Below, one piece after another: positions 3,423 through 28,763 of a DNA stretch of 64,000 nucleotides. The DNA is from a virus. Within the stretch, counting starts at the first letter, position 1. Every line of letters begins with the position of its first letter. The position numbers and the translations under genes are program-made. Where the stretch lies: the IMG/VR virus record IMGVR_UViG_3300046808_001035; one strand, written 5' to 3'. The notes below the pieces were generated by a model, which saw nothing but the letters and a program-made list of their open reading frames with translations, searched no databases and had not been told where the DNA came from.

Positions 3423-4451
3423 TTACATTTCGTTCATGAACCGCAGTGCTTCTTCGCGGCTCATTTGTCTAGAGGCCATCGGGTTTGGGGGGAGTGAGCT
3501 TAGATCGACTGGTTGAACTGCAGGAATAGCTACACTAGCTACAGCCACTGGAGCGATAGAAGCTTTTGGAATGTCTAATACAGGTACCGCTGCAGGCACA
3601 GGAATCTTAGGTGCTTCTTGCACAGGAGCGAGACAAATATTGTCAGCCTTCTGCTCAAAACTAGCTCCACGCCCCTGAGGCTTTAATAGCCCTGGATAAC
3701 CATTCATACAATCGTCAAAAATATCTGCGCTATACATCTCACGAAGCTTGGCAAGAATATCTTCTTTGGTCTTTGTGACGAATACGTCGTCAAGGTCGTA
3801 CAGATAATCGCTGTCGGCCAGCTGCTCAGGAAGCTTTACCGCCTGACTGCTCTCTACTTGAACAGTCCAGGGGTTTTGTGAACCTTCTTTAAGCTTGATA
3901 TATACAGGAACACAACGATCAGGGTCATTGATTGGATTTCTTGGGTTGCCTTGAAGATCTTTGCCGCCAAGCCAATTCATAAGAATATCTGCACCATTGC
4001 GCAAAGGAAGATCGAGCACATGCGCACCAGCTGAAAGATTTTGGGCAAAAGCTACATTGTACACTACACGGTCGGTAACACGACCACAGAACGGATACTG
4101 CTTGAACTTCTTACCGTTATTATCTACGTCACGCACACGAGACTCTTCAGGGTAGAGGATCTTGAGGTTGTTTGCAAAATATTCTGCAGGGTCCTGAAGC
4201 TTGTTAGGAATGAAATACTTTTCTTTGTAGCTAGTGCCGAAATTGTCACGCACGCTGATACGCTTGTACCAGATACCATTACCAGAACTGTCAGCCTTGT
4301 AGGCAGGAAGGAAGTAGAGATAAGCGCCCTCGACATTAGATGTTTTACTGAAGATGGCCCTACGCACACCGTCCTTGATGTAAGGTGTCGCAGAAGAGCC
4401 GAGGTTGAGTTCACTGCCTTCGAATTTAAGAGATGGTTTGATGATTGCCAT
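3423..4451 (-). CDS. Probable single-stranded DNA-binding protein (gp32-like)
   Basis: Adjacent to RecA; size; YFLPAY motif; low-complexity Pro/Ala/Val C-terminal tail; A/C-rich leader suggesting high expression. Inference. Confidence 0.5.
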   Translation of the reverse strand: MAIIKPSLKFEGSELNLGSSATPYIKDGVRRAIFSKTSNVEGAYLYFLPAYKADSSGNGIWYKRISVRDNFGTSYKEKYFIPNKLQDPAEYFANNLKILYPEESRVRDVDNNGKKFKQYPFCGRVTDRVVYNVAFAQNLSAGAHVLDLPLRNGADILMNWLGGKDLQGNPRNPINDPDRCVPVYIKLKEGSQNPWTVQVESSQAVKLPEQLADSDYLYDLDDVFVTKTKEDILAKLREMYSADIFDDCMNGYPGLLKPQGRGASFEQKADNICLAPVQEAPKIPVPAAVPVLDIPKASIAPVAVASVAIPAVQPVDLSSLPPNPMASRQMSREEALRFMNEM

Positions 4452-4528: not shown

Positions 4529-5119
4529 TTAAATCATGAAGATATTTTTGTACGTAACTTGTCCTCTGAGCTTGTTGAGGAATGTCTGCACCATCATACC
4601 TGCCACAATAATCGGCAAGGCGTGACTGATATTTTGCTCTTTCTCATAAGCAAGCAAACAGCCACCTTCTTCGTTACTGTCATCAATGTATGGAAGCAAC
4701 GCCTCTTTAGTTAAATCACTGTTAAACAGCGCTGCCTGTCTGCTGGTGCACCTACCGTCGATCCAGAATAGCTTATCTTTTTCTTGTGTCCAGCTGTATT
4801 CATACAGCGACTTACGAAACGCCATACTGTCTACGCAGCTGAAGATCAGGTCGTATTTGCTAAAGTCTTCGACCAGCATCCTACGCCTGATACCCCTTAC
4901 AATATACTTGTCCTCAAGGACTTCTACTTTGTACCTGCCTACATCATCAAGCTTAAAGTTCTGATGTAGAAGATTTGAGACATCTACCTGGTCGTCGTCG
5001 TAAATATCTATGTCTACTTCTGTATAGTTGAATTGCTTTCTGTTGTAGCCATAGTCAAAAAGGATAGCGAGTAGATTACTGCCAATACCTCCAGCGCCAG
5101 CGATTGCGATACTATTCAT
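4529..5119 (-). CDS. ThiF/MoeB/E1-family adenylating enzyme
   Basis: IAIAGAGGIGS nucleotide-binding loop, DDDQVDVSNLLHQ, VGRYK, SCVDS..R, WIDGR; single Cys in EGGC; no CxxC zinc pairs. Confidence 0.9.
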   Translation of the reverse strand: MNSIAIAGAGGIGSNLLAILFDYGYNRKQFNYTEVDIDIYDDDQVDVSNLLHQNFKLDDVGRYKVEVLEDKYIVRGIRRRMLVEDFSKYDLIFSCVDSMAFRKSLYEYSWTQEKDKLFWIDGRCTSRQAALFNSDLTKEALLPYIDDSNEEGGCLLAYEKEQNISHALPIIVAGMMVQTFLNKLRGQVTYKNIFMI

Positions 5120-5543
5120 TTTGTGTTTTACTAAGTTCTTCTCGGGTTACGATTTCTTTCAATACTGATTGGTCATTCTCCCATGTTGAGTATGAAAACA
5201 CACCATGGTTTCTTGCTGCATAGATTACATTGTGCTTAAACCCTTGGAACAATGTATCTAGATCTAGATTACTAGGGTACGGAGAAAAGCTTGGGTGTGT
5301 GTGAAAGCTAGCACAGATCTCCCAACCTTCCTTATACCTGTCAAACAATAGCTTACCTAACTCTAGCTTATCTGCCTCATACAAACTTATTGCTGTGTGC
5401 GATCCTTTGTGTTTGTTTTTGATTTTTACAAACCGGTAATCATCTTTTCGAGCTAGTAGCACACCACCCTCTTCCTCAAGAGGGTGGTCGCACTGGTCTG
5501 CCGCATCAAGCACAGCTTTTGCGAATGCTGGTTTATCAAGCAT
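5112..5543 (-). CDS. JAB/MPN+ (JAMM) metalloprotease
   Basis: EEGG ... FHTHPSFSPYPSNLD matches E-Xn-HxH-X7-S-X2-D; start taken at ATG 5543 (8-nt overlap with upstream stop). Confidence 0.9.
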   Translation of the reverse strand: MLDKPAFAKAVLDAADQCDHPLEEEGGVLLARKDDYRFVKIKNKHKGSHTAISLYEADKLELGKLLFDRYKEGWEICASFHTHPSFSPYPSNLDLDTLFQGFKHNVIYAARNHGVFSYSTWENDQSVLKEIVTREELSKTQNE

Positions 5544-7572
5544 TTGTTTTATTCGCGAGGGATGCAACAATACCAGCCACCAAACCATCAGCTTCACGCT
5601 CAGGTGTGTGTGCGTGTTCGTTCTCGTATTGAGGCTGCGCGGCTCCTCGAAGAGTACTTACACTAGACTGCAACACGCTGTCGTTTTTAAGTGTAAGTAA
5701 TCTGGTCGCCACGTCGTCATAGCCTGCACCGTCATAGTGTCTATCGTTCACAATACAGCGATACTGCTTTGTGTCAAAATCATATACCTTAGCGTTTTCA
5801 ATCACAATTGCGTATGTTCTCAGGCTGCCTGTAACCTTGTAGGCTCTTTTGCCTTTGAACTCGATGAGTTCAGCTCCTGTCATGGCTACAGCTGTGGCCA
5901 TGAACTCTTTCGATCGCTCGATAGCACTAAGCTTTTCAGTCTTTGCTACATCTAGTAGTGCACACAAGTCATCTTCAGTAATCAAGCACTTTTGCGTTAC
6001 TGTCTTAAAACCACTAGCGTTAGACTCTTCTTCTTTAAAAGTACAGCACTCAAGCAAAGCTTTAATTATTTGCTCCGCTCCCCATAGGTAGTTTCTATAC
6101 CCACTTCTATAACCGTTTGCTCTGGTAGAGTAGAAATACTGGTTGTCTGTTTTTTTGTTGACCGCCTCAGCTCGCTTAACTAGCCTTCCTAGGTGAACCT
6201 TTACAGAGCGCTCGGACGAAACCTCAAGCTTATAATCTCCTTCTTTATCCACAAAGAATTTTAACCTTGGTGCGTCTAGTGAAGGCTCAGGATTGCGATA
6301 TTCTGCACCAGTCATACTATGGTGTATTTTCAAGGCAAGTCCGTTAGCTATAACATCATGCATCTTTAGGCTTAGATTGGACGTAGCCTTTACAAACAGT
6401 CTATACTCTTCACTACTGTGATAGCAGCTTGCGCGATAAATCACTGTAGCAACCTCAGACTTATTAATACGTATGTCGTTAACAAAGCGTTGTCCGTTAT
6501 CGTTCAGAGCTGCTTTGATAGGTATACCATTAATCTTGATCTCTGCAGTATACACTTTACCGTCCAGGGGAGTTGTCATGGTGTCTAGCTGCGATTCAAT
6601 ATTTCTAGCGACAACATTACAAATAGTATAAATATCGAACTCACCATCAAAATTAAGATTTGTGTGAAGCAGCTCGAGCAGGTTATCGGCCTCGATGATC
6701 ACATTATCATATGCGACTCTATGCTTATAGAACTGAATGTTCTGTAGCATGGTGCCTTCTATATCACTATTGATGATCTTACTGATTACTACAAGAGTTG
6801 TATTTTTCTTGTAGTCTCTGTCTATGCACTCAGCCAGCTCTTTATACTTATCTTTATTCTCGGTAGTGAGATTTTTGATCATCTTGAGCTTTAAGAGCTC
6901 TGCGTCGTACTTGTTGATAAAGCACTCTTTAGTCAGGAATTTAACCAGAGAGGGCTGCAGCTTACACAACATAAAAACGTAAGCTGTATGCACGTCATAG
7001 CTATTAGAGGCAATGAATGTGCTTGTGTAAGAGGCGTCATCTTCGATATCAAGCAAATAAAAACCTGCGTCGAGATAGTCATACAAGGGCTCGTCTTCTC
7101 TAGCAATCAAGCTAATGATAGGCATGGATACGTCATCAGTGACGATTCGATAAGTGTTGTCACCCTCAACACACTCAATCGGGGCACTCGCTATGATTTT
7201 AGGCACATACTGAGGAGGAACTGACTCTGGAATAATTTTTAGTGTATTGAATAGTGTTGAATGCGCTTTGAGAATAACTCTTAGCGTCCTTTTATCGCTT
7301 CCGGACAAGTAGTCTGCAACCCGAACCAATTCATCGTGAGTTAAACCATCACACTTTAGGTGCAGCGTTCTAAAGTCTGCGATGACTTTAGAAAAGGCAT
7401 GCATTTTTTCTACAGACTCAAACTCAAGGTGCCTAAAGTCTATAAAATTAATCGGTGTGTAGTTCGGCCCCCAGCGCGAGTCTACACACACTTCAGCGTT
7501 CTTGAGATGCTTAGCAGCTTCATTAAACTGCTTGTTTATTAATTTATAGTCGTTTAATTGAAATGTGGCCAT
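5536..7572 (-). CDS. Large protein of unknown function in Ubl/JAB/E1 operon (C-terminal YRCIV Cys domain)
   Basis: ~678 aa from ATG 7572; the longer 7608 start lies inside a terminator hairpin; coupled to JAB gene. Confidence 0.8.
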   Translation of the reverse strand: MATFQLNDYKLINKQFNEAAKHLKNAEVCVDSRWGPNYTPINFIDFRHLEFESVEKMHAFSKVIADFRTLHLKCDGLTHDELVRVADYLSGSDKRTLRVILKAHSTLFNTLKIIPESVPPQYVPKIIASAPIECVEGDNTYRIVTDDVSMPIISLIAREDEPLYDYLDAGFYLLDIEDDASYTSTFIASNSYDVHTAYVFMLCKLQPSLVKFLTKECFINKYDAELLKLKMIKNLTTENKDKYKELAECIDRDYKKNTTLVVISKIINSDIEGTMLQNIQFYKHRVAYDNVIIEADNLLELLHTNLNFDGEFDIYTICNVVARNIESQLDTMTTPLDGKVYTAEIKINGIPIKAALNDNGQRFVNDIRINKSEVATVIYRASCYHSSEEYRLFVKATSNLSLKMHDVIANGLALKIHHSMTGAEYRNPEPSLDAPRLKFFVDKEGDYKLEVSSERSVKVHLGRLVKRAEAVNKKTDNQYFYSTRANGYRSGYRNYLWGAEQIIKALLECCTFKEEESNASGFKTVTQKCLITEDDLCALLDVAKTEKLSAIERSKEFMATAVAMTGAELIEFKGKRAYKVTGSLRTYAIVIENAKVYDFDTKQYRCIVNDRHYDGAGYDDVATRLLTLKNDSVLQSSVSTLRGAAQPQYENEHAHTPEREADGLVAGIVASLANKTNA

Positions 7573-7578
7573 AGTTAG

Positions 7579-7616
7579 AAATAAAAAGCCCCCTAGCACA
7601 CGAGGCACTAGGGGGC
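7579..7616 (-). terminator. Rho-independent terminator after Ubl gene
   Basis: GCCCCCTAG-11nt-CTAGGGGGC followed by TTTTTATTT on the minus strand. Confidence 0.8.
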
Positions 7617-7632
7617 ATAGCTGCAGTAGGGG

Positions 7633-7956
7633 CTACAGGCTTTGCTTGTCGCCACCAATCACCTGACCAGTAAGCATGACCTGAGCATTAGGATTTTGCT
7701 CAAGCTGGGTACGCAGCTTGGAAATATTAGCTTCGCTACGCGCAGAACTTCCTGCGAACTCGAAAGGAGCTCCGTTAATAAATACCCAATTCTTCTTTGT
7801 CTCTACCAGTTCAGTGATGTTGTCGATAGCCTGGTCGATATCGAGAGTGAGAGTGTCATGCCCAGTTTTGTTGGCTACGAGAAGAGTATACATGTTGGTG
7901 TTGTTGCTGGTGATTTCGGTTTCGTTGCTGTTGTTGTTGTTGACTTCGTTGTTCAT
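7633..7956 (-). CDS. Candidate ubiquitin-like (beta-grasp) modifier with C-terminal GG plus 5-residue tail
   Basis: Core ~86 aa from M at 7893: beta-beta-alpha pattern, WVFING, terminal strand QVMLTGQVIGG-DKQSL; first gene of the JAB/E1 operon. Confidence 0.7.
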   Translation of the reverse strand: MNNEVNNNNSNETEITSNNTNMYTLLVANKTGHDTLTLDIDQAIDNITELVETKKNWVFINGAPFEFAGSSARSEANISKLRTQLEQNPNAQVMLTGQVIGGDKQSL

Positions 7957-8921: not shown

Positions 8922-9662
8922 TTAACGGTGAATAGGGAAGTTTACATGCCTTGTGAGCCCGTTTTTAAGAGGTCGGTCTACACAAACTCTACATCTAGCA
9001 CAAGCTCCAATATCGTCGAGTTTCTTTACTTTTCCTGTGACCTCAGGACAAGCTAGACTGGGTCGATCAACAACATCTTCAGGAAAGCTATCACCCATCC
9101 AGGCGATAGCGACGTTTGGGTAATCTTTATATTTATCGTAAACTACTAATACTTCATCTTTGTTCACTATATCACAACTAAGCATGAGTGTAAGGTTTTT
9201 ACACTCGGCCAGTACAGGTACAGCGAAGAGGCTTCTAGTATAGGCCCAAAACCTTACACTAGGAGTCTCTTCGATGACCTTTGACCATGCTTCCACGTAT
9301 GTGAGATTAAAGAAATCACCACCAGTATGTATGCGAAAGAAAGGTTTGTTTCCTTTATTCGCCAGCAGCCATTTAGTTATTGTGTTTTTAATAACCCTAT
9401 AGGCTAGAGCAAAATCAGCGTCTATGACTTTTGCTGTGTTTGCGTCTTCTACAGCTGCATATCTCTTGTATAGCTTTCTTAGATTTTTATCATAACACAC
9501 ATTCAAGCATCCTCCAGGGCCTTTTGTCGCGTGAGGACATGTGCCACCTTCGCTAGGAGGTCCTTGGGTAAGACTGAACGTATTGTTATGGTTATTGTAG
9601 AATCTGACCTTGCTGTTGTTGGTCAGCTGAAAACTGTCGTGGTTTACTGTTTCCATTCCCAT
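8922..9662 (-). CDS. Gp88-like Cys-rich phage protein (probable Fe-S/metal binding)
   Basis: TCPHAT..GCL..CY, FRIH.GGDF, FWAYTRS, LMLS.D, CP...C..C..C pattern. Confidence 0.7.
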   Translation of the reverse strand: MGMETVNHDSFQLTNNSKVRFYNNHNNTFSLTQGPPSEGGTCPHATKGPGGCLNVCYDKNLRKLYKRYAAVEDANTAKVIDADFALAYRVIKNTITKWLLANKGNKPFFRIHTGGDFFNLTYVEAWSKVIEETPSVRFWAYTRSLFAVPVLAECKNLTLMLSCDIVNKDEVLVVYDKYKDYPNVAIAWMGDSFPEDVVDRPSLACPEVTGKVKKLDDIGACARCRVCVDRPLKNGLTRHVNFPIHR

Positions 9663-12361
9663 ATGTTTTTCTCAAAGTTCCAGGCTGTTTCTTTTTCAAA
9701 TACTTTTTCTTTTCCTTTCCAACGATCCATAATAGCTAGCTCACAGCCTACAGTATCTCCTGTTGCAAGCTTGGTGTGGCTGCAAAACACATACTTTAAG
9801 AGCTCTTGAATATAGTTTCCATGTAGAAGATCTTTATGTATCGCCCAATAGCCTGCATCATGCACTGTATTGATTGGATAGATATGCCGCATCCAAAGGT
9901 TTTCTTTCTTAAGAATATTCTTTAAGTTAACACTAGCTTCCCACATAAACCATGCAAGCTCACTCGCCACAGGGAAAGCTAGACTCTCATTCTTCCAGCC
10001 TGCTAGGATACCGAAATTGTCTGTATGCTCATAGCTTAGGGTAAGGCCTCGAGCGTTGGTAATTCTTCGATACTCATCGACTTCATTTGTGCAACGATCT
10101 CTGAAAGCCATATACTTCTTGTATCTCTTCCAGGTTTCAAGTGCATACTCTAGGGTAGCAAGACCTACATGTAACCCATTTTCAGCATAGATGTCTGCTT
10201 GAATTGGGATAGCTGCAAACTTTAATCCTGCAGTATAGCTAACCCTAAAGGTGATACTCTTAGAAATAACATATTTACTTACATCAGATTTGGTAAGAGT
10301 GCCGTCATTAAAATATTCACGCATCTTGGTAACATGGAAACTGCCTGCACGTATGTCGTGAATAAAATCTTCATCCTGACTCAAGAAAGCCATAATAGCC
10401 AAATCTGCGCCAGCTACATCAAGCTCTGCCCAGTAATAATCTTTCATACCTGAGCAGAAGATATTCCTAATATTCTTTGGTAGTAGATGTGCAACCTTCT
10501 TCTGTTCTTCGCTAGTATAGTCACTATAACCAGGCACAAATATATCTGGGATATATGCCAAAACCTTAGAGGCTGGATTTTGTACGTTAGGGCTACTGCT
10601 GGCGCGGAAGTTTTTCAAACACTCGAAAAAGCTTGCGTGTATTCTTCCGTCAGAGCAAATAGCCGCCCAATAGCTTTGCTTTAAAGGTTCATCTATATCT
10701 TCATCAAACTCACCTTCGGTTTCCGAGACTATCCCTTTTTTGCTAAGAAACTTTGTTGCAAAAACTCCCACACGACTGACACTAAGCAAGAGAGTGATTG
10801 CTCTGTGAACATCCACAATATTATTGTAATTTTCTCTAGCATAGTCGGGGTTGTCTTTGTGTGTCTCTAGGAGTTCTTCAAGTTGGAATTTAATTGTAGA
10901 TAAGCTTTTGCCGTTCGTGCTCGGCTCATACATCTTTTGCGTTTGGGGTTTTTGCTTATCGTACCAAACTTTACTTTTAGGGCTTTTGCCAGCTTTAGTA
11001 TAGTACGCAGGCTCTACACACAATACCTCGAAAAGTAGGTGCTTTTTCTGAGGAGCGCTATTCGGATTAAAATCTTCTACTCCGAACCGCTCATGTAGAA
11101 ACGTTACGAGTTCTGCTCTAAGTTCTTCATATTTCTCGCTATATTTTTGAGTAATCTCATCTAGCACTTTTTGGTCTACTCCAATACCTGTAAGCTCCAT
11201 ATCTGTGATATAGTGCGTTAGCGGTAGATAGATGTTATAGTAGCAGTCTCTAAGCCTGGCAGGTAGATATTCTTGCATCCGCAAGCAAGCTTCTCGATGG
11301 CTCACAGCATCACCAGCACAATATTGATAGTACAGCTCAGGTTCAACAAATTTCATCTTAGCCAGCTCGTTTTTAGCTAGCTTGTGCTCTTTCATCTTGC
11401 GATTAAACTCTGTGTAATAGGGAGTATAGTCTGTAAACATCTTGATACCTGTCTCAAGACCTTTACTGAGCCTACTATCAATAAACGCCACAGCTTTCAT
11501 ACCATCGAAAGCTAGAGTCTCGTCAGGAATGTTGAATCCTCGGTGTCTAAGGCGCAAATCGTCAGCACGTATGTTCCAGCCAAGTCTTCTGGCTTTAGGG
11601 TGCTCTAGAATAAGCTTCATAGTATCTAGAAGCTCTCTATTCTCAGTGATTCCGTCTTTACTGATGTTCAATACAACAGCCATATCTTTTTGGCAGCTGT
11701 ATTGAAACTCATACATAACCTCATCGTCGGTGAACTTTTCCCCGAACCACTCAGCATCGTAGCCTATATCGAACATTCCTTTAGAGATATAGTTATTGAG
11801 CATGGCTATATTCTCTTGAGGATCATCAATAATTACATAGTGGTATTGAGTATAGTTTAGCTGGTTATCAAGAACTCTCTTTGCCAGGGCGAATGTAAGC
11901 CTAAACTCGGGACGCTTTGTAGGGTCCATCACTACAATCATGCCTGGAGCATAGTTAGCGATAACTTTACCATAAGCGGTATCAGTAATCTCACCAACAT
12001 AATCACCCATCTTGATGTTGGTGTTCATAATCCTTTTGAAGGCTTCTGCTCCAAGAGGCATGATCAGCTTGGGTTTAAACTTTTCTATTTCTTCATCTAG
12101 GTTAGCTCGCCAATATTCAATATCTTCAGCACTAGGCTTTGGTTTGCTGCCGATACCATACTTAACCATTCCTGTGAAATAAACACGTTCGATAGGTATT
12201 TTTGCAGCAGCCAAAGCGTCTAGTACCTCGTCTGCAGAAGATCCCTTGACTCCGAAACGTTTCTCTTCCATATCATCTTTAGATGGATGAGAAAACACAA
12301 CCATTAGGTCTATTTCATTACCTTCAACATATCTTGGCTCGATTTTTATTTTGTCGCTCAT
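9644..12361 (-). CDS. Family A DNA polymerase with N-terminal UDG-like domain and 3'-5' exonuclease
   Basis: N-terminal family-4 UDG-like segment (KPKLIMPLGAEA); ExoI YDAE, ExoII WNIRAD, ExoIII YCAGD; R.SS.PNVQN; motif A ELDVAGADL, motif B KSITFRVSY, motif C TVHD. Confidence 0.92.
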   Translation of the reverse strand: MSDKIKIEPRYVEGNEIDLMVVFSHPSKDDMEEKRFGVKGSSADEVLDALAAAKIPIERVYFTGMVKYGIGSKPKPSAEDIEYWRANLDEEIEKFKPKLIMPLGAEAFKRIMNTNIKMGDYVGEITDTAYGKVIANYAPGMIVVMDPTKRPEFRLTFALAKRVLDNQLNYTQYHYVIIDDPQENIAMLNNYISKGMFDIGYDAEWFGEKFTDDEVMYEFQYSCQKDMAVVLNISKDGITENRELLDTMKLILEHPKARRLGWNIRADDLRLRHRGFNIPDETLAFDGMKAVAFIDSRLSKGLETGIKMFTDYTPYYTEFNRKMKEHKLAKNELAKMKFVEPELYYQYCAGDAVSHREACLRMQEYLPARLRDCYYNIYLPLTHYITDMELTGIGVDQKVLDEITQKYSEKYEELRAELVTFLHERFGVEDFNPNSAPQKKHLLFEVLCVEPAYYTKAGKSPKSKVWYDKQKPQTQKMYEPSTNGKSLSTIKFQLEELLETHKDNPDYARENYNNIVDVHRAITLLLSVSRVGVFATKFLSKKGIVSETEGEFDEDIDEPLKQSYWAAICSDGRIHASFFECLKNFRASSSPNVQNPASKVLAYIPDIFVPGYSDYTSEEQKKVAHLLPKNIRNIFCSGMKDYYWAELDVAGADLAIMAFLSQDEDFIHDIRAGSFHVTKMREYFNDGTLTKSDVSKYVISKSITFRVSYTAGLKFAAIPIQADIYAENGLHVGLATLEYALETWKRYKKYMAFRDRCTNEVDEYRRITNARGLTLSYEHTDNFGILAGWKNESLAFPVASELAWFMWEASVNLKNILKKENLWMRHIYPINTVHDAGYWAIHKDLLHGNYIQELLKYVFCSHTKLATGDTVGCELAIMDRWKGKEKVFEKETAWNFEKNIWEWKQ

Positions 12362-22042: not shown

Positions 22043-22305
22043 ACGTCTGCGTAAGTTGAGTTATGTGTGACTTTAACAAGCTTATATTCTTTTCTGTTAA
22101 GATTTCGTTCGTCTTGTTGTTTTTTCTCTAATCTGCGCTGCGCTGCGTGCATTGCCTGTTCCTCATCTGCGTATATTTCTTCTGGACCGTACTGATATTT
22201 AATGAACGGACGAACAGGATACCAAACCCCCCACTCGTTAAATACATCTAAAAAATTTCTAGTGTAAACTGTAAAATAATTTTTTTCTGTTTGTGCGAAT
22301 ATCAT
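22039..22305 (-). CDS. Hypothetical protein
   Basis: 88-aa ORF with ATGA overlaps. Confidence 0.7.
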   Translation of the reverse strand: MIFAQTEKNYFTVYTRNFLDVFNEWGVWYPVRPFIKYQYGPEEIYADEEQAMHAAQRRLEKKQQDERNLNRKEYKLVKVTHNSTYADV

Positions 22306-23225
22306 AGCGATTGAAACGATTTTTCTTTCATCTTGAACTCAAAGTCCAAGTCTACTTGCTGTCCGTATGTATCTGGTAATGCTGAAGCATAGTCTGCATG
22401 TTTCCTAGGGTTTTTATCCCCAGGAATACTTTCACTGTAATGAAACAATGGGATATGTGGTTTAGTTCTCCAAGAGTCGTGAGCCAGTAGAAAAGCCTGC
22501 GCTTCCTGTGAGAAATACCCTGTACCTGGGTGGCACTTGTGATGCAGATAATCGAATGTGATAGGGATCTCTGGCTGATCAAAATGATCGTATAACTGCT
22601 GTACCGTCCAGCCTGCACTCTTGTCGTCGTTCTCGAGAACAAGTCTGCTCTTCACGTCACTAGATAGCTTTTCAAAGTTCGTATAGAACAAATCTCTCAC
22701 ACGCTTACGAGCATAGTCAGACTGAGCGCTTCTGTTAACATGAATATTGATGGGTGCTTCGTAAGAATGAGGGCAACCTATCCTACTCATAACCCAGCCG
22801 TGAAAGTCTAGTTCACGAATGGTGCGCGTTACTGCATCCTCGTTATCACTAGCTAGTACATTGAATTGGTCAGGATGACTACTCAGCCTGACATTGTACT
22901 TTTCCCTCATCACTTGAATATCTATAAGTTTATCTTGAATATAAGCTAGGTTAGGAAATTCAGCGAACGTAATATTTGCTTTGTCGTATGTGACTAGAGG
23001 AAAAATATTACTACTCAACCTGTAGTTGTATCCTCCAATCCCGCAATACTCGATGGCTTTTTCCGTGACACATAAGTTGTGTAGAATAATTTCTCCAAGC
23101 TTAAATACAGCTTCTTCTCTCGGTAGAGAGCTGAAGCGCTTATAGGTCATTGTTCTAAACTTACAGAACGGGTCAGTGTCTTCTAGCGACAATACAATAC
23201 AACAAACACCTTTATTGCGGATCAT
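22302..23225 (-). CDS. uvsE: UV damage endonuclease (UvsE/UVDE family)
   Basis: YRLSSNIFP, RLSSHPDQFNVL, INIHV, RLVLENDD, FDYLHH, FHYSE, HADY, EFKMKE. Confidence 0.92.
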   Translation of the reverse strand: MIRNKGVCCIVLSLEDTDPFCKFRTMTYKRFSSLPREEAVFKLGEIILHNLCVTEKAIEYCGIGGYNYRLSSNIFPLVTYDKANITFAEFPNLAYIQDKLIDIQVMREKYNVRLSSHPDQFNVLASDNEDAVTRTIRELDFHGWVMSRIGCPHSYEAPINIHVNRSAQSDYARKRVRDLFYTNFEKLSSDVKSRLVLENDDKSAGWTVQQLYDHFDQPEIPITFDYLHHKCHPGTGYFSQEAQAFLLAHDSWRTKPHIPLFHYSESIPGDKNPRKHADYASALPDTYGQQVDLDFEFKMKEKSFQSL

Positions 23226-27758: not shown

Positions 27759-28763
27759 TTACACGCTTAGCTTGCGGAAATACTCGCCACTTACGTTAGC
27801 TACATCTGTAAGAGATTCAGCTTCTTTAACAATCGTTGTGAGATGCTGCTGAAGCTGGCTAAGAGCTTCTTTATCTGTGCCGAAGTCGCGATCTCCTGTA
27901 AGCAGCTTTTCTACTTTCTGAAGTTCATTTTCAATAGCTCTGTCATCAACAAAGTTCATCTGCCTGAACTCATGAATATGCTTCATGAGTGTGCGAATGT
28001 TAGCATCGCTGACGACTTCCTTCTTACTAATCTTTTTAAGTGTTACACTACAATGCTCAGCAATAGTAGTGCGCAATGTAGACGTAACCTGACCCACAAA
28101 GTCATTGATCTTACTCATGTGAGTTTCAAGCTGTCGGTTATACTCTTGTTTGTATTGCGAAGTAGCTTCTTCTTTTGCTAGAGTTACTACAGCTTCACGA
28201 TCAATCTCGGTCTGGAGATCTACCTCAGCGAAAGCTGCAGGCAAAGCAATCTCGAAACTTACAATATCAAGATAGAACTTCTGTCTGATTGTAGCGAGAG
28301 GAGGATAGTAGTTTGCAAGATCCTCAACATTCACAGTATCCTTGTGCTCCTGGTAATATTCGATAACCTCACGCTTGTAGTCTTCATACTTCTCGACGAA
28401 CTCGTCAACCATAAGCATATACTCATCACGCAGCTCGTTTAGCTTACGATAGACCTCAGCGTATTTTGTCTTCGGTACGAAGTGTGCCTGACTAACAAGA
28501 GGAAAGTCAAAAGAGTTCGTATAAAGGTACTTACGAATCTTTTGCTCGTGATTCTTGAACTTGTTATACACGGCAGGTTTGATGAGCATCTTTTTGCCAA
28601 GCTTGATTGTTTCAGGAAGCTTGTTGTCGAGCTTGATGTCTTCTTCTGTGAGGTTGTAGCTCATACCCCACATACCAATATGAATATTGACCAGGCGGCC
28701 ATCCTGAAAAACCTTGTCGTAGTACTTTTGAAGTGTGTCGGTGATTTTGTAGTTGTTGTCCAT
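27759..28763 (-). CDS. DUF3150-like protein
   Basis: IGMW, LGKK.LI, FVP, YP...I..KF pattern, long helical C-terminus; module context. Confidence 0.65.
   Translation of the reverse strand: MDNNYKITDTLQKYYDKVFQDGRLVNIHIGMWGMSYNLTEEDIKLDNKLPETIKLGKKMLIKPAVYNKFKNHEQKIRKYLYTNSFDFPLVSQAHFVPKTKYAEVYRKLNELRDEYMLMVDEFVEKYEDYKREVIEYYQEHKDTVNVEDLANYYPPLATIRQKFYLDIVSFEIALPAAFAEVDLQTEIDREAVVTLAKEEATSQYKQEYNRQLETHMSKINDFVGQVTSTLRTTIAEHCSVTLKKISKKEVVSDANIRTLMKHIHEFRQMNFVDDRAIENELQKVEKLLTGDRDFGTDKEALSQLQQHLTTIVKEAESLTDVANVSGEYFRKLSV

Follow-up and report, generated by a model that had tools for sequence, protein, structure and literature searches.

The window analyzed here, the 64,000 nucleotides from the IMG/VR virus record IMGVR_UViG_3300046808_001035, carries at positions 4529-7956 four minus-strand open reading frames (ORFs) that encode, in order of transcription, a putative ubiquitin-like protein (Ubl) precursor, a large multidomain protein, a JAB/JAMM metalloprotease and a ThiF/E1 adenylating enzyme. 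The window belongs to a tailed, myovirus-like phage, as family scans identified genes for a terminase, a baseplate wedge, helicases, a sigma factor and PolA; contigs with these exact proteins are up to 176,754 bases long.

The Ubl precursor gene (107 aa, 7633-7956) is separated by a terminator-like hairpin, with a 12-bp stem and a U-tract (7588-7616, minus strand), from the genes for the large protein (678 aa, 5536-7572), which is a candidate Ubl carrier/ligase, the JAB protease (143 aa, 5112-5543; PF14464 match, E 1.5e-8) and a minimal E1 (196 aa, 4529-5119; PF00899 match, E 4.6e-17). The last three genes are joined by 8-nt stop/start overlaps, at 5536-5543 between the large protein and JAB and at 5112-5119 between JAB and E1. 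The four co-oriented genes, their positions, both overlaps and the motifs given in an initial annotation of this DNA were all borne out by our ORF check. The start codons ATG 7572 (large protein) and ATG 5543 (JAB) were chosen because they agree with the starts of homologs; GTG 7608 was rejected as the start of the large protein, since it lies inside the terminator hairpin and the homolog starts fit ATG 7572. In Pfam, PHROG and NCBIfam scans, neither the Ubl nor the large protein matched a family above cut-off.

The Ubl precursor, the E1 and the JAB protease

The small protein consists of an Asn/Thr-rich N-terminal extension (~21 aa), a predicted beta-grasp core, the pair Gly101-Gly102 (7651-7656) and the tail DKQSL. 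Its AlphaFold (AF2) model (predicted local distance difference test, pLDDT, 88) shows the order strand-strand-helix-strand-strand-helix-strand, which is the beta-grasp order with an extra helix, and nearly all top matches in the fold search are ubiquitin-like (ISG15, ubiquitin, the Bil Ubl, MoaD). As the scores are modest (best Z 5.0, with a root-mean-square deviation (rmsd) of 3.3 over 65 aligned residues; Foldseek E 0.01), the prediction of a beta-grasp fold, which agrees with the earlier proposal for this protein, is based on the consistency of the structural matches.

A profile search with the Ubl returned 111 homologs, and both glycines are invariant in the alignment of 110 sequences. The tail that follows them varies freely, from none (15 cases) to 17 residues or more in the close clade and to about 100-200 residues in distant members; a conserved glycine pair followed by variable tails is what the initial annotation had anticipated for a processed Ubl. 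Long-tailed distant Ubls are encoded at L071 6396-6944, L072 945-1535, L074 6188-6919 and L080 10351-11169. Some of these tails are apparently folded, so that JAB cleavage would free a second protein.

The hairpin downstream of the Ubl gene is GC-rich and resembles an intrinsic terminator. In 21/21 relatives, this gene is followed by a hairpin of -15 kcal/mol or lower, which comes with a U-tract in 17 of them, and a comparison of the regions after nine other gene types gave only one case with a U-tract; these genomes are related, and the counts are therefore not independent. The structure is retained across the relatives while its sequence changes. The presence of a conserved terminator-like hairpin that is specific to the 3' side of the Ubl gene suggests, at the level of sequence, that the Ubl is produced in excess over the enzymes. 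Promoter-like matches did not exceed chance level.

The E1 is a single ThiF domain and carries neither a rhodanese domain nor a zinc-binding CxxC pair. The initial annotation had described an enzyme without CxxC pairs and with one cysteine in the crossover region, which is correct; the residue is Cys154 (4658-4660), the candidate catalytic cysteine. Two further cysteines, Cys95 and Cys124, are conserved in the close clade only, and Cys154 is the sole E1 cysteine that is invariant in distant members. At 64-84% identity across 119 homologs, the enzyme is unusually conserved. Searches of PDB sequences with profiles of the E1 and of the C-terminal domain of the large protein returned nothing useful, and the predicted complex of an E1 dimer with this domain, at a score of 0.01, is not evidence either way.

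In one relative (L005 5829-~7000; L010 is on this contig, too), an insert of ~1.2 kb with a LAGLIDADG ORF splits the E1 gene within the DxDxV motif. Homing introns usually aim at conserved, needed genes. The insert is probably a mobile intron; an Rfam search of the interrupted gene found no intron model.

The JAMM motif of the protease (E24, H81-T-H83, S91, D94), reported as intact in the initial annotation, is indeed intact in the window as well as in 23/23 close loci. It is also intact in three genomes in which the Ubl ends exactly at GG, and JAB therefore probably has a job beyond maturation, consistent with deconjugation.

The large protein, its bacterial relatives and the distribution of the module

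Among 106 distant full-length homologs of the large protein, Arg142 (100%), Asp168 (100%), Cys383 (96%; 6424-6426) and Cys606 (100%; 5755-5757) are conserved. Cys606 is located in a C-terminal domain (residues ~545-645, 5638-5940), for which a profile search gave 308 clusters at 50% identity, mostly proteins of 600-750 aa. This cysteine is kept in 145/145 true homologs of the domain; one further candidate, P0314, was a false positive with repeats that contain a look-alike motif.

Several comparisons connect the C-terminal domain to the bacterial DUF7737 domain. A profile-profile alignment (hhalign) gave a probability of 96.6% (E 6.7e-10) with the cysteines aligned and a C-I-V motif shared, and in the structure comparison in the Atlas the domain matched DUF7737 proteins with a TM score of 0.57. 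Pfam DUF7737 matches were obtained for 72/139 domain members, and as all of these are under the curated cut-off, the phage domain is, on profile evidence, a distant branch of the DUF7737 family.

The AF2 model of the large protein has a pLDDT of 83.5 and a predicted template modeling score (pTM) of 0.44. In a structural search with the whole 678-residue model, ~11/14 compact PDB rows over the C-terminal region have the ubiquitin-conjugating (UBC) fold. They include the UEV domains of Vps23 (Z 3.9, rmsd 3.9, 86 aligned), VPS37A (Z 3.9), Tsg101 and FTS, RWD domains, and entries for Ube2W (Z 3.5, 97 aligned) and BubB (Z 3.1). The modeled order around Cys606 is a helix, a four-strand meander, a hairpin, the cysteine, a 12-residue loop and a helix, which we take to follow the E2 layout minus its HPN motif. 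The weak likeness to UBC, UEV and RWD domains makes 'E2-like' a lead for the Cys606 domain, not a result. Foldseek with the whole model found no significant PDB match and three unnamed BFVD proteins at E <1e-5, and a feature search of the ESM Atlas was blank. For residues 1-540, searched only within the whole model, no clear fold was found, and we do not claim a new fold.

In samples of bacterial DUF7737 regions from two phyla, a homologous small protein that ends in GG, or in G with a short tail, was found in 14/14 cases. In the nine loci that allowed both genes to be placed, the gene of the small protein is immediately upstream; one copy is split. In the Bacillota-type loci L125-L129, the partner has no terminal GG but a single Gly followed by a short tail (e.g., AGRLW), which implies that a processing protease is encoded elsewhere. 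The phage Ubl and the bacterial small-protein families show at most distant kinship (hhalign probability 39%). The profile alignment of the phage large protein with bacterial DUF4132 proteins covers residues 555-636 only. DUF4132 (PF13569) itself has no Pfam match in the phage protein; DUF4132 proteins are the top shape matches in the Atlas, with a TM score of 0.27 over residues 105-645. As a Gly-ended small protein is encoded next to the Cys domain in viruses and bacteria alike, the domain most likely handles this protein.

Twenty-two other viral contigs (IMG/VR) share the order Ubl-large protein-JAB-E1, with the four genes located between PolA/GP88 and RecA. The recurrence of the four-gene synteny was among the expectations of the initial annotation, and the same order in so many contigs is far beyond chance. 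In 12/22 of these contigs an ORF of ~215 aa is located between the large gene and JAB (L002 5888-6562, L003 5858-6514 and about ten more); the two that were scanned resemble a PolB-type 3'-5' exonuclease. Neither this optional exonuclease gene nor GP88 is constant, and both were rejected as core parts.

Nine distant loci found via the large protein have several gene orders and genomic contexts. The same Ubl family is present in 9/9, E1 in 8/9 and JAB in seven; in the locus where no E1 was seen, the sequence ends right after JAB. At three loci found via E1 alone, the large gene is likewise present and the Ubl is tail-less; no JAB is seen up to 7 kb away. Wherever the neighborhood is visible a tailed Ubl is accompanied by JAB, and only tail-less Ubls occur without one. 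Linkage in the close contigs, the distant loci and the E1-found loci thus defines a constant core of Ubl, E1 and large protein. One distant virus has three paralogous ORFs (222-257 aa; L077 9945-12223) in the interval from the large gene to E1.

Neither the large protein nor this E1 has a match among the cultured phages of INPHARED, and a scan of GTDB genomes with the profile of the close C-terminal domains gave no match. The single module locus from cellular collections is on a 136-kb contig of a metagenome-assembled genome, which carries PolB and is probably viral.

A candidate tagging cascade, its alternatives and known systems

We favor, at a probability of about 0.55, a virus-encoded, reversible Ubl-tagging cascade in which the large protein would replace an E2 and perhaps an E3. 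Gene linkage, residue conservation, predicted folds and the hairpin come from the computational analysis, whereas we infer every chemical step from protein anatomy, family knowledge and analogy with Bil. Most transcripts would stop at the hairpin after the Ubl gene, giving a surplus of Ubl, and JAB would cut off the tail after Gly102. The E1 would adenylate the Ubl glycine with ATP and then form a thioester with the Ubl via Cys154, from where the Ubl may move to Cys606 in the DUF7737-type, putatively E2-like domain of the large protein. Transfer from Cys606 to Cys383 is a possible second, E3-like relay. The Ubl would then be ligated to lysines of targets selected by the N-terminal domains of the large protein, and JAB might also strip the conjugates. 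The targets are most likely proteins in phage DNA replication/recombination, or host proteins opposing it; the link to replication is drawn from the gene neighborhood only.

Several observations argue for this cascade. The E1 has one conserved crossover cysteine, and its counterpart in the large protein is Cys606, conserved at 100% in a domain with mostly UBC-fold structural neighbors; it is probable that this invariant cysteine replaces the usual carrier enzyme. A terminator specific to the Ubl gene fits a tag that is consumed in quantity. The glycine pair is invariant while the tails are free, and the genes for Ubl, large protein and E1 co-occur in close and divergent viruses. The homologous bacterial domain is found beside a Gly-ended small protein in all 14 loci, JAB is intact beside GG-ended Ubls, and no gene of the sulfur-relay types named below was found in five near-complete relatives. 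A precedent exists in Bil, where an E1, an E2, a JAB protease and a tailed Ubl generate isopeptides (PMC10557695).

A number of points weigh against such a cascade. The UBC matches were all measured on the whole model at Z 3.0-3.9, which is too low to prove kinship; E2 families are absent from the Pfam matches of the 139 domain homologs; and the Cys606 domain lacks the HPN motif that canonical E2s have. A motif scan, the only search made there, did not detect an E1 near the 14 bacterial DUF7737 loci. Finally, a minimal ThiF-type E1 and JAB also serve sulfur carriers (CysO/Mec), and the Arg142/Asp168 domain of the large protein could be the client enzyme of a sulfur relay.

Such a sulfur relay appears unlikely. 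Here, the Ubl would be turned into a thiocarboxylate by the E1 and JAB, persulfides of the host or of the large protein would supply the sulfur, and the large protein would be a client that acts on a nucleotide, DNA, tRNA or small molecule. ThiS/ThiF, MoaD/MoeB and CysO/Mec likewise combine a GG-ended beta-grasp protein with a minimal E1, and JAB proteases are established as enzymes that trim and recycle sulfur carriers, as for CysO. The two conserved cysteines of the large protein could hold persulfides, and R142 and D168 look catalytic. However, the phage E1 does not have the zinc site, the Cys606 domain resembles UBC folds and not rhodanese, and a recycled carrier has no obvious need for excess. 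The initial annotation had noted the lack of a sulfur-transfer client, and this held up in five near-complete (93-100%) relatives, in which ThiG, MoaE, TtcA-type (ATP_bind_3), PALP and rhodanese proteins were found in 0/5, with positive controls. Though close-clade modules have a Cys-rich GP88 gene as a neighbor, and that of L088 a radical SAM gene, GP88 is not among the called neighbors in several distant loci.

Transfer of the Ubl to the large protein itself, as a covalent switch, or to a non-protein acceptor (a DNA end, nucleotide or lipid) we regard as rather improbable. The strict linkage of three genes with no other constant partner would be in line with it, as would the frequent occurrence of DNA-processing genes next to the module (PolA, RecA, Ku, ligase, PolB, RNR), but an excess of Ubl fits many targets better than one and DNA genes abound in the early regions of phages in any case. 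In D. radiodurans, derepression of the DdrO damage regulon extends to the DUF4132 operon drA0165-0166 (bioRxiv 10.1101/2021.07.07.451423), but homology with DUF4132 proteins is confined to the C-terminal domain. A counter-defense decoy, in which host Bil/CBASS conjugation would be undone by JAB or blocked by the Ubl while the phage itself tags nothing, is very improbable: host E1/E2/JAB systems are anti-phage (PMC11601596) and JAB is kept where the Ubl tail is absent, but a dedicated cognate Ubl, E1 and two-Cys carrier disfavor a pure decoy, for which the E1 and the large partner would be superfluous, JAB is the component that some loci lack, and the fixed site in every close relative examined and the very conserved E1 are unlike patchy anti-defense genes.

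In its way of working the module resembles Bil or PRTRC, but it differs from Bil, Bub and PRTRC in the features by which membership was tested. Like BilABCD, it has a Ubl with a tail after a conserved Gly, a JAB/JAMM protease, an E1 with a catalytic Cys (a candidate one in the phage) and no separate E3 (PMC10557695), and the Bil Ubl (8tyz_B, Z 4.5) is among the fold matches of the phage Ubl. In contrast to the Bil E1, with its IAD, AAD, mobile CYS domain and zinc site, the phage E1 is limited to the one domain, and instead of a BilB-type E2 (CEHH motif), which was not found in the operon or the 22 syntenic contigs, there is the 678-aa two-Cys protein. Bil is located in host defense islands, whereas the phage module is carried by viruses.

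The PRTRC cassette, which is probably operon type 6d of Iyer, Burroughs and Aravind 2006 (PMC1779556), shares with the module a stand-alone ThiF-type E1, a JAB, a small Ubl and carriage by mobile elements. The closest NCBIfam model for the phage E1 is PRTRC_ThiF (TIGR03736), but the match of 49 bits is far below the cut-off of 144.75 and no JAB-N extension is present. Scans with Pfam and NCBIfam gave no PRTRC or Prok-E2 matches for the operon proteins and their nearest neighbors. A PRTRC-like five-gene cassette occurs in the cultured Bacillus phages vB_BceM_WH1 (L086 674-5726) and vB_BauM_KLEB27-3 (L087 514-5690) and holds ThiF, JAB and a probable Prok-E2_D gene (weak match, one phage); it was rejected as the same system, since the large-protein and Ubl profiles do not match it, but offers a phage-carried example that is open to experiment.

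The Bub (6E/DUF6527) system is also a diverged bacterial E1-E2-Ubl pathway, and its BubB is one of the weak fold matches mentioned above. Bub relies on Tyr/Ser oxyesters and on BubE, and its E1 has no catalytic Cys and is fused to a peptidase (PMC11601596), whereas the phage has a separate JAB and E1, with the invariant Cys154 and carrier cysteines. The bacterial DUF4132-DUF7737 proteins (PF13569/PF24879) have a homologous C-terminal Cys domain and an adjacent Gly-ended small protein, as in the phage, but only the C-terminal domain aligns and neither an E1 nor a JAB was seen near the bacterial loci. None of the five operon types of Iyer, Burroughs and Aravind lists a large two-cysteine partner (PMC1779556). 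In a literature search that covered few subscription journals, we found no description of the module and no mention of DUF7737.

Type II CBASS, Bil and Bub are host systems, the first two of which act against phages (PMC10557695, PMC11601596). Should the tagging cascade be real, phages would use Ubl tagging for their own purposes, as a self-contained, strongly conserved cascade at a constant site in numerous uncultured viruses; it would also add a new type of carrier enzyme and provide a handle on DUF7737, a widespread bacterial domain. As a more tentative extension, which we consider doubtful, DUF7737 might be an unrecognized minimal E2-like family and the viral protein a fused E2-E3 with a Cys606-to-Cys383 relay that serves a core function in this group of large phages. 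This carrier domain would then also account for the bacterial DUF4132-DUF7737 operons.

Neighboring genes and genome context

The operon has PolA and RecA as neighbors, as described in the initial annotation, which had counted this position in favor of protein tagging by the phage, of its own replication proteins or of host targets, or of interference with a host Ubl-based defense. The position itself was confirmed; as evidence for a role it is weak, since distant members sit in other gene contexts. Between E1 and RecA, a 342-aa protein with a Pro/Ala-rich C-terminal part (3423-4451) is encoded in the window and in all close relatives; the gene had been labeled SSB, a name for which Pfam, PHROG and NCBIfam gave no match. 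On the other side, a Cys-rich GP88-family protein (PF17338; 8922-9662) is a constant neighbor of PolA within the close clade, and the family A DNA polymerase itself (9644-12361) has an N-terminal uracil-DNA-glycosylase-like domain.

Elsewhere in the window, a UvdE UV-endonuclease (22302-23225) and a DUF3150 protein (27759-28763) are encoded. A Shine-Dalgarno-like word precedes only 1/46 window genes and the upstream regions are A-rich, suggesting a host lineage with Shine-Dalgarno-independent initiation.

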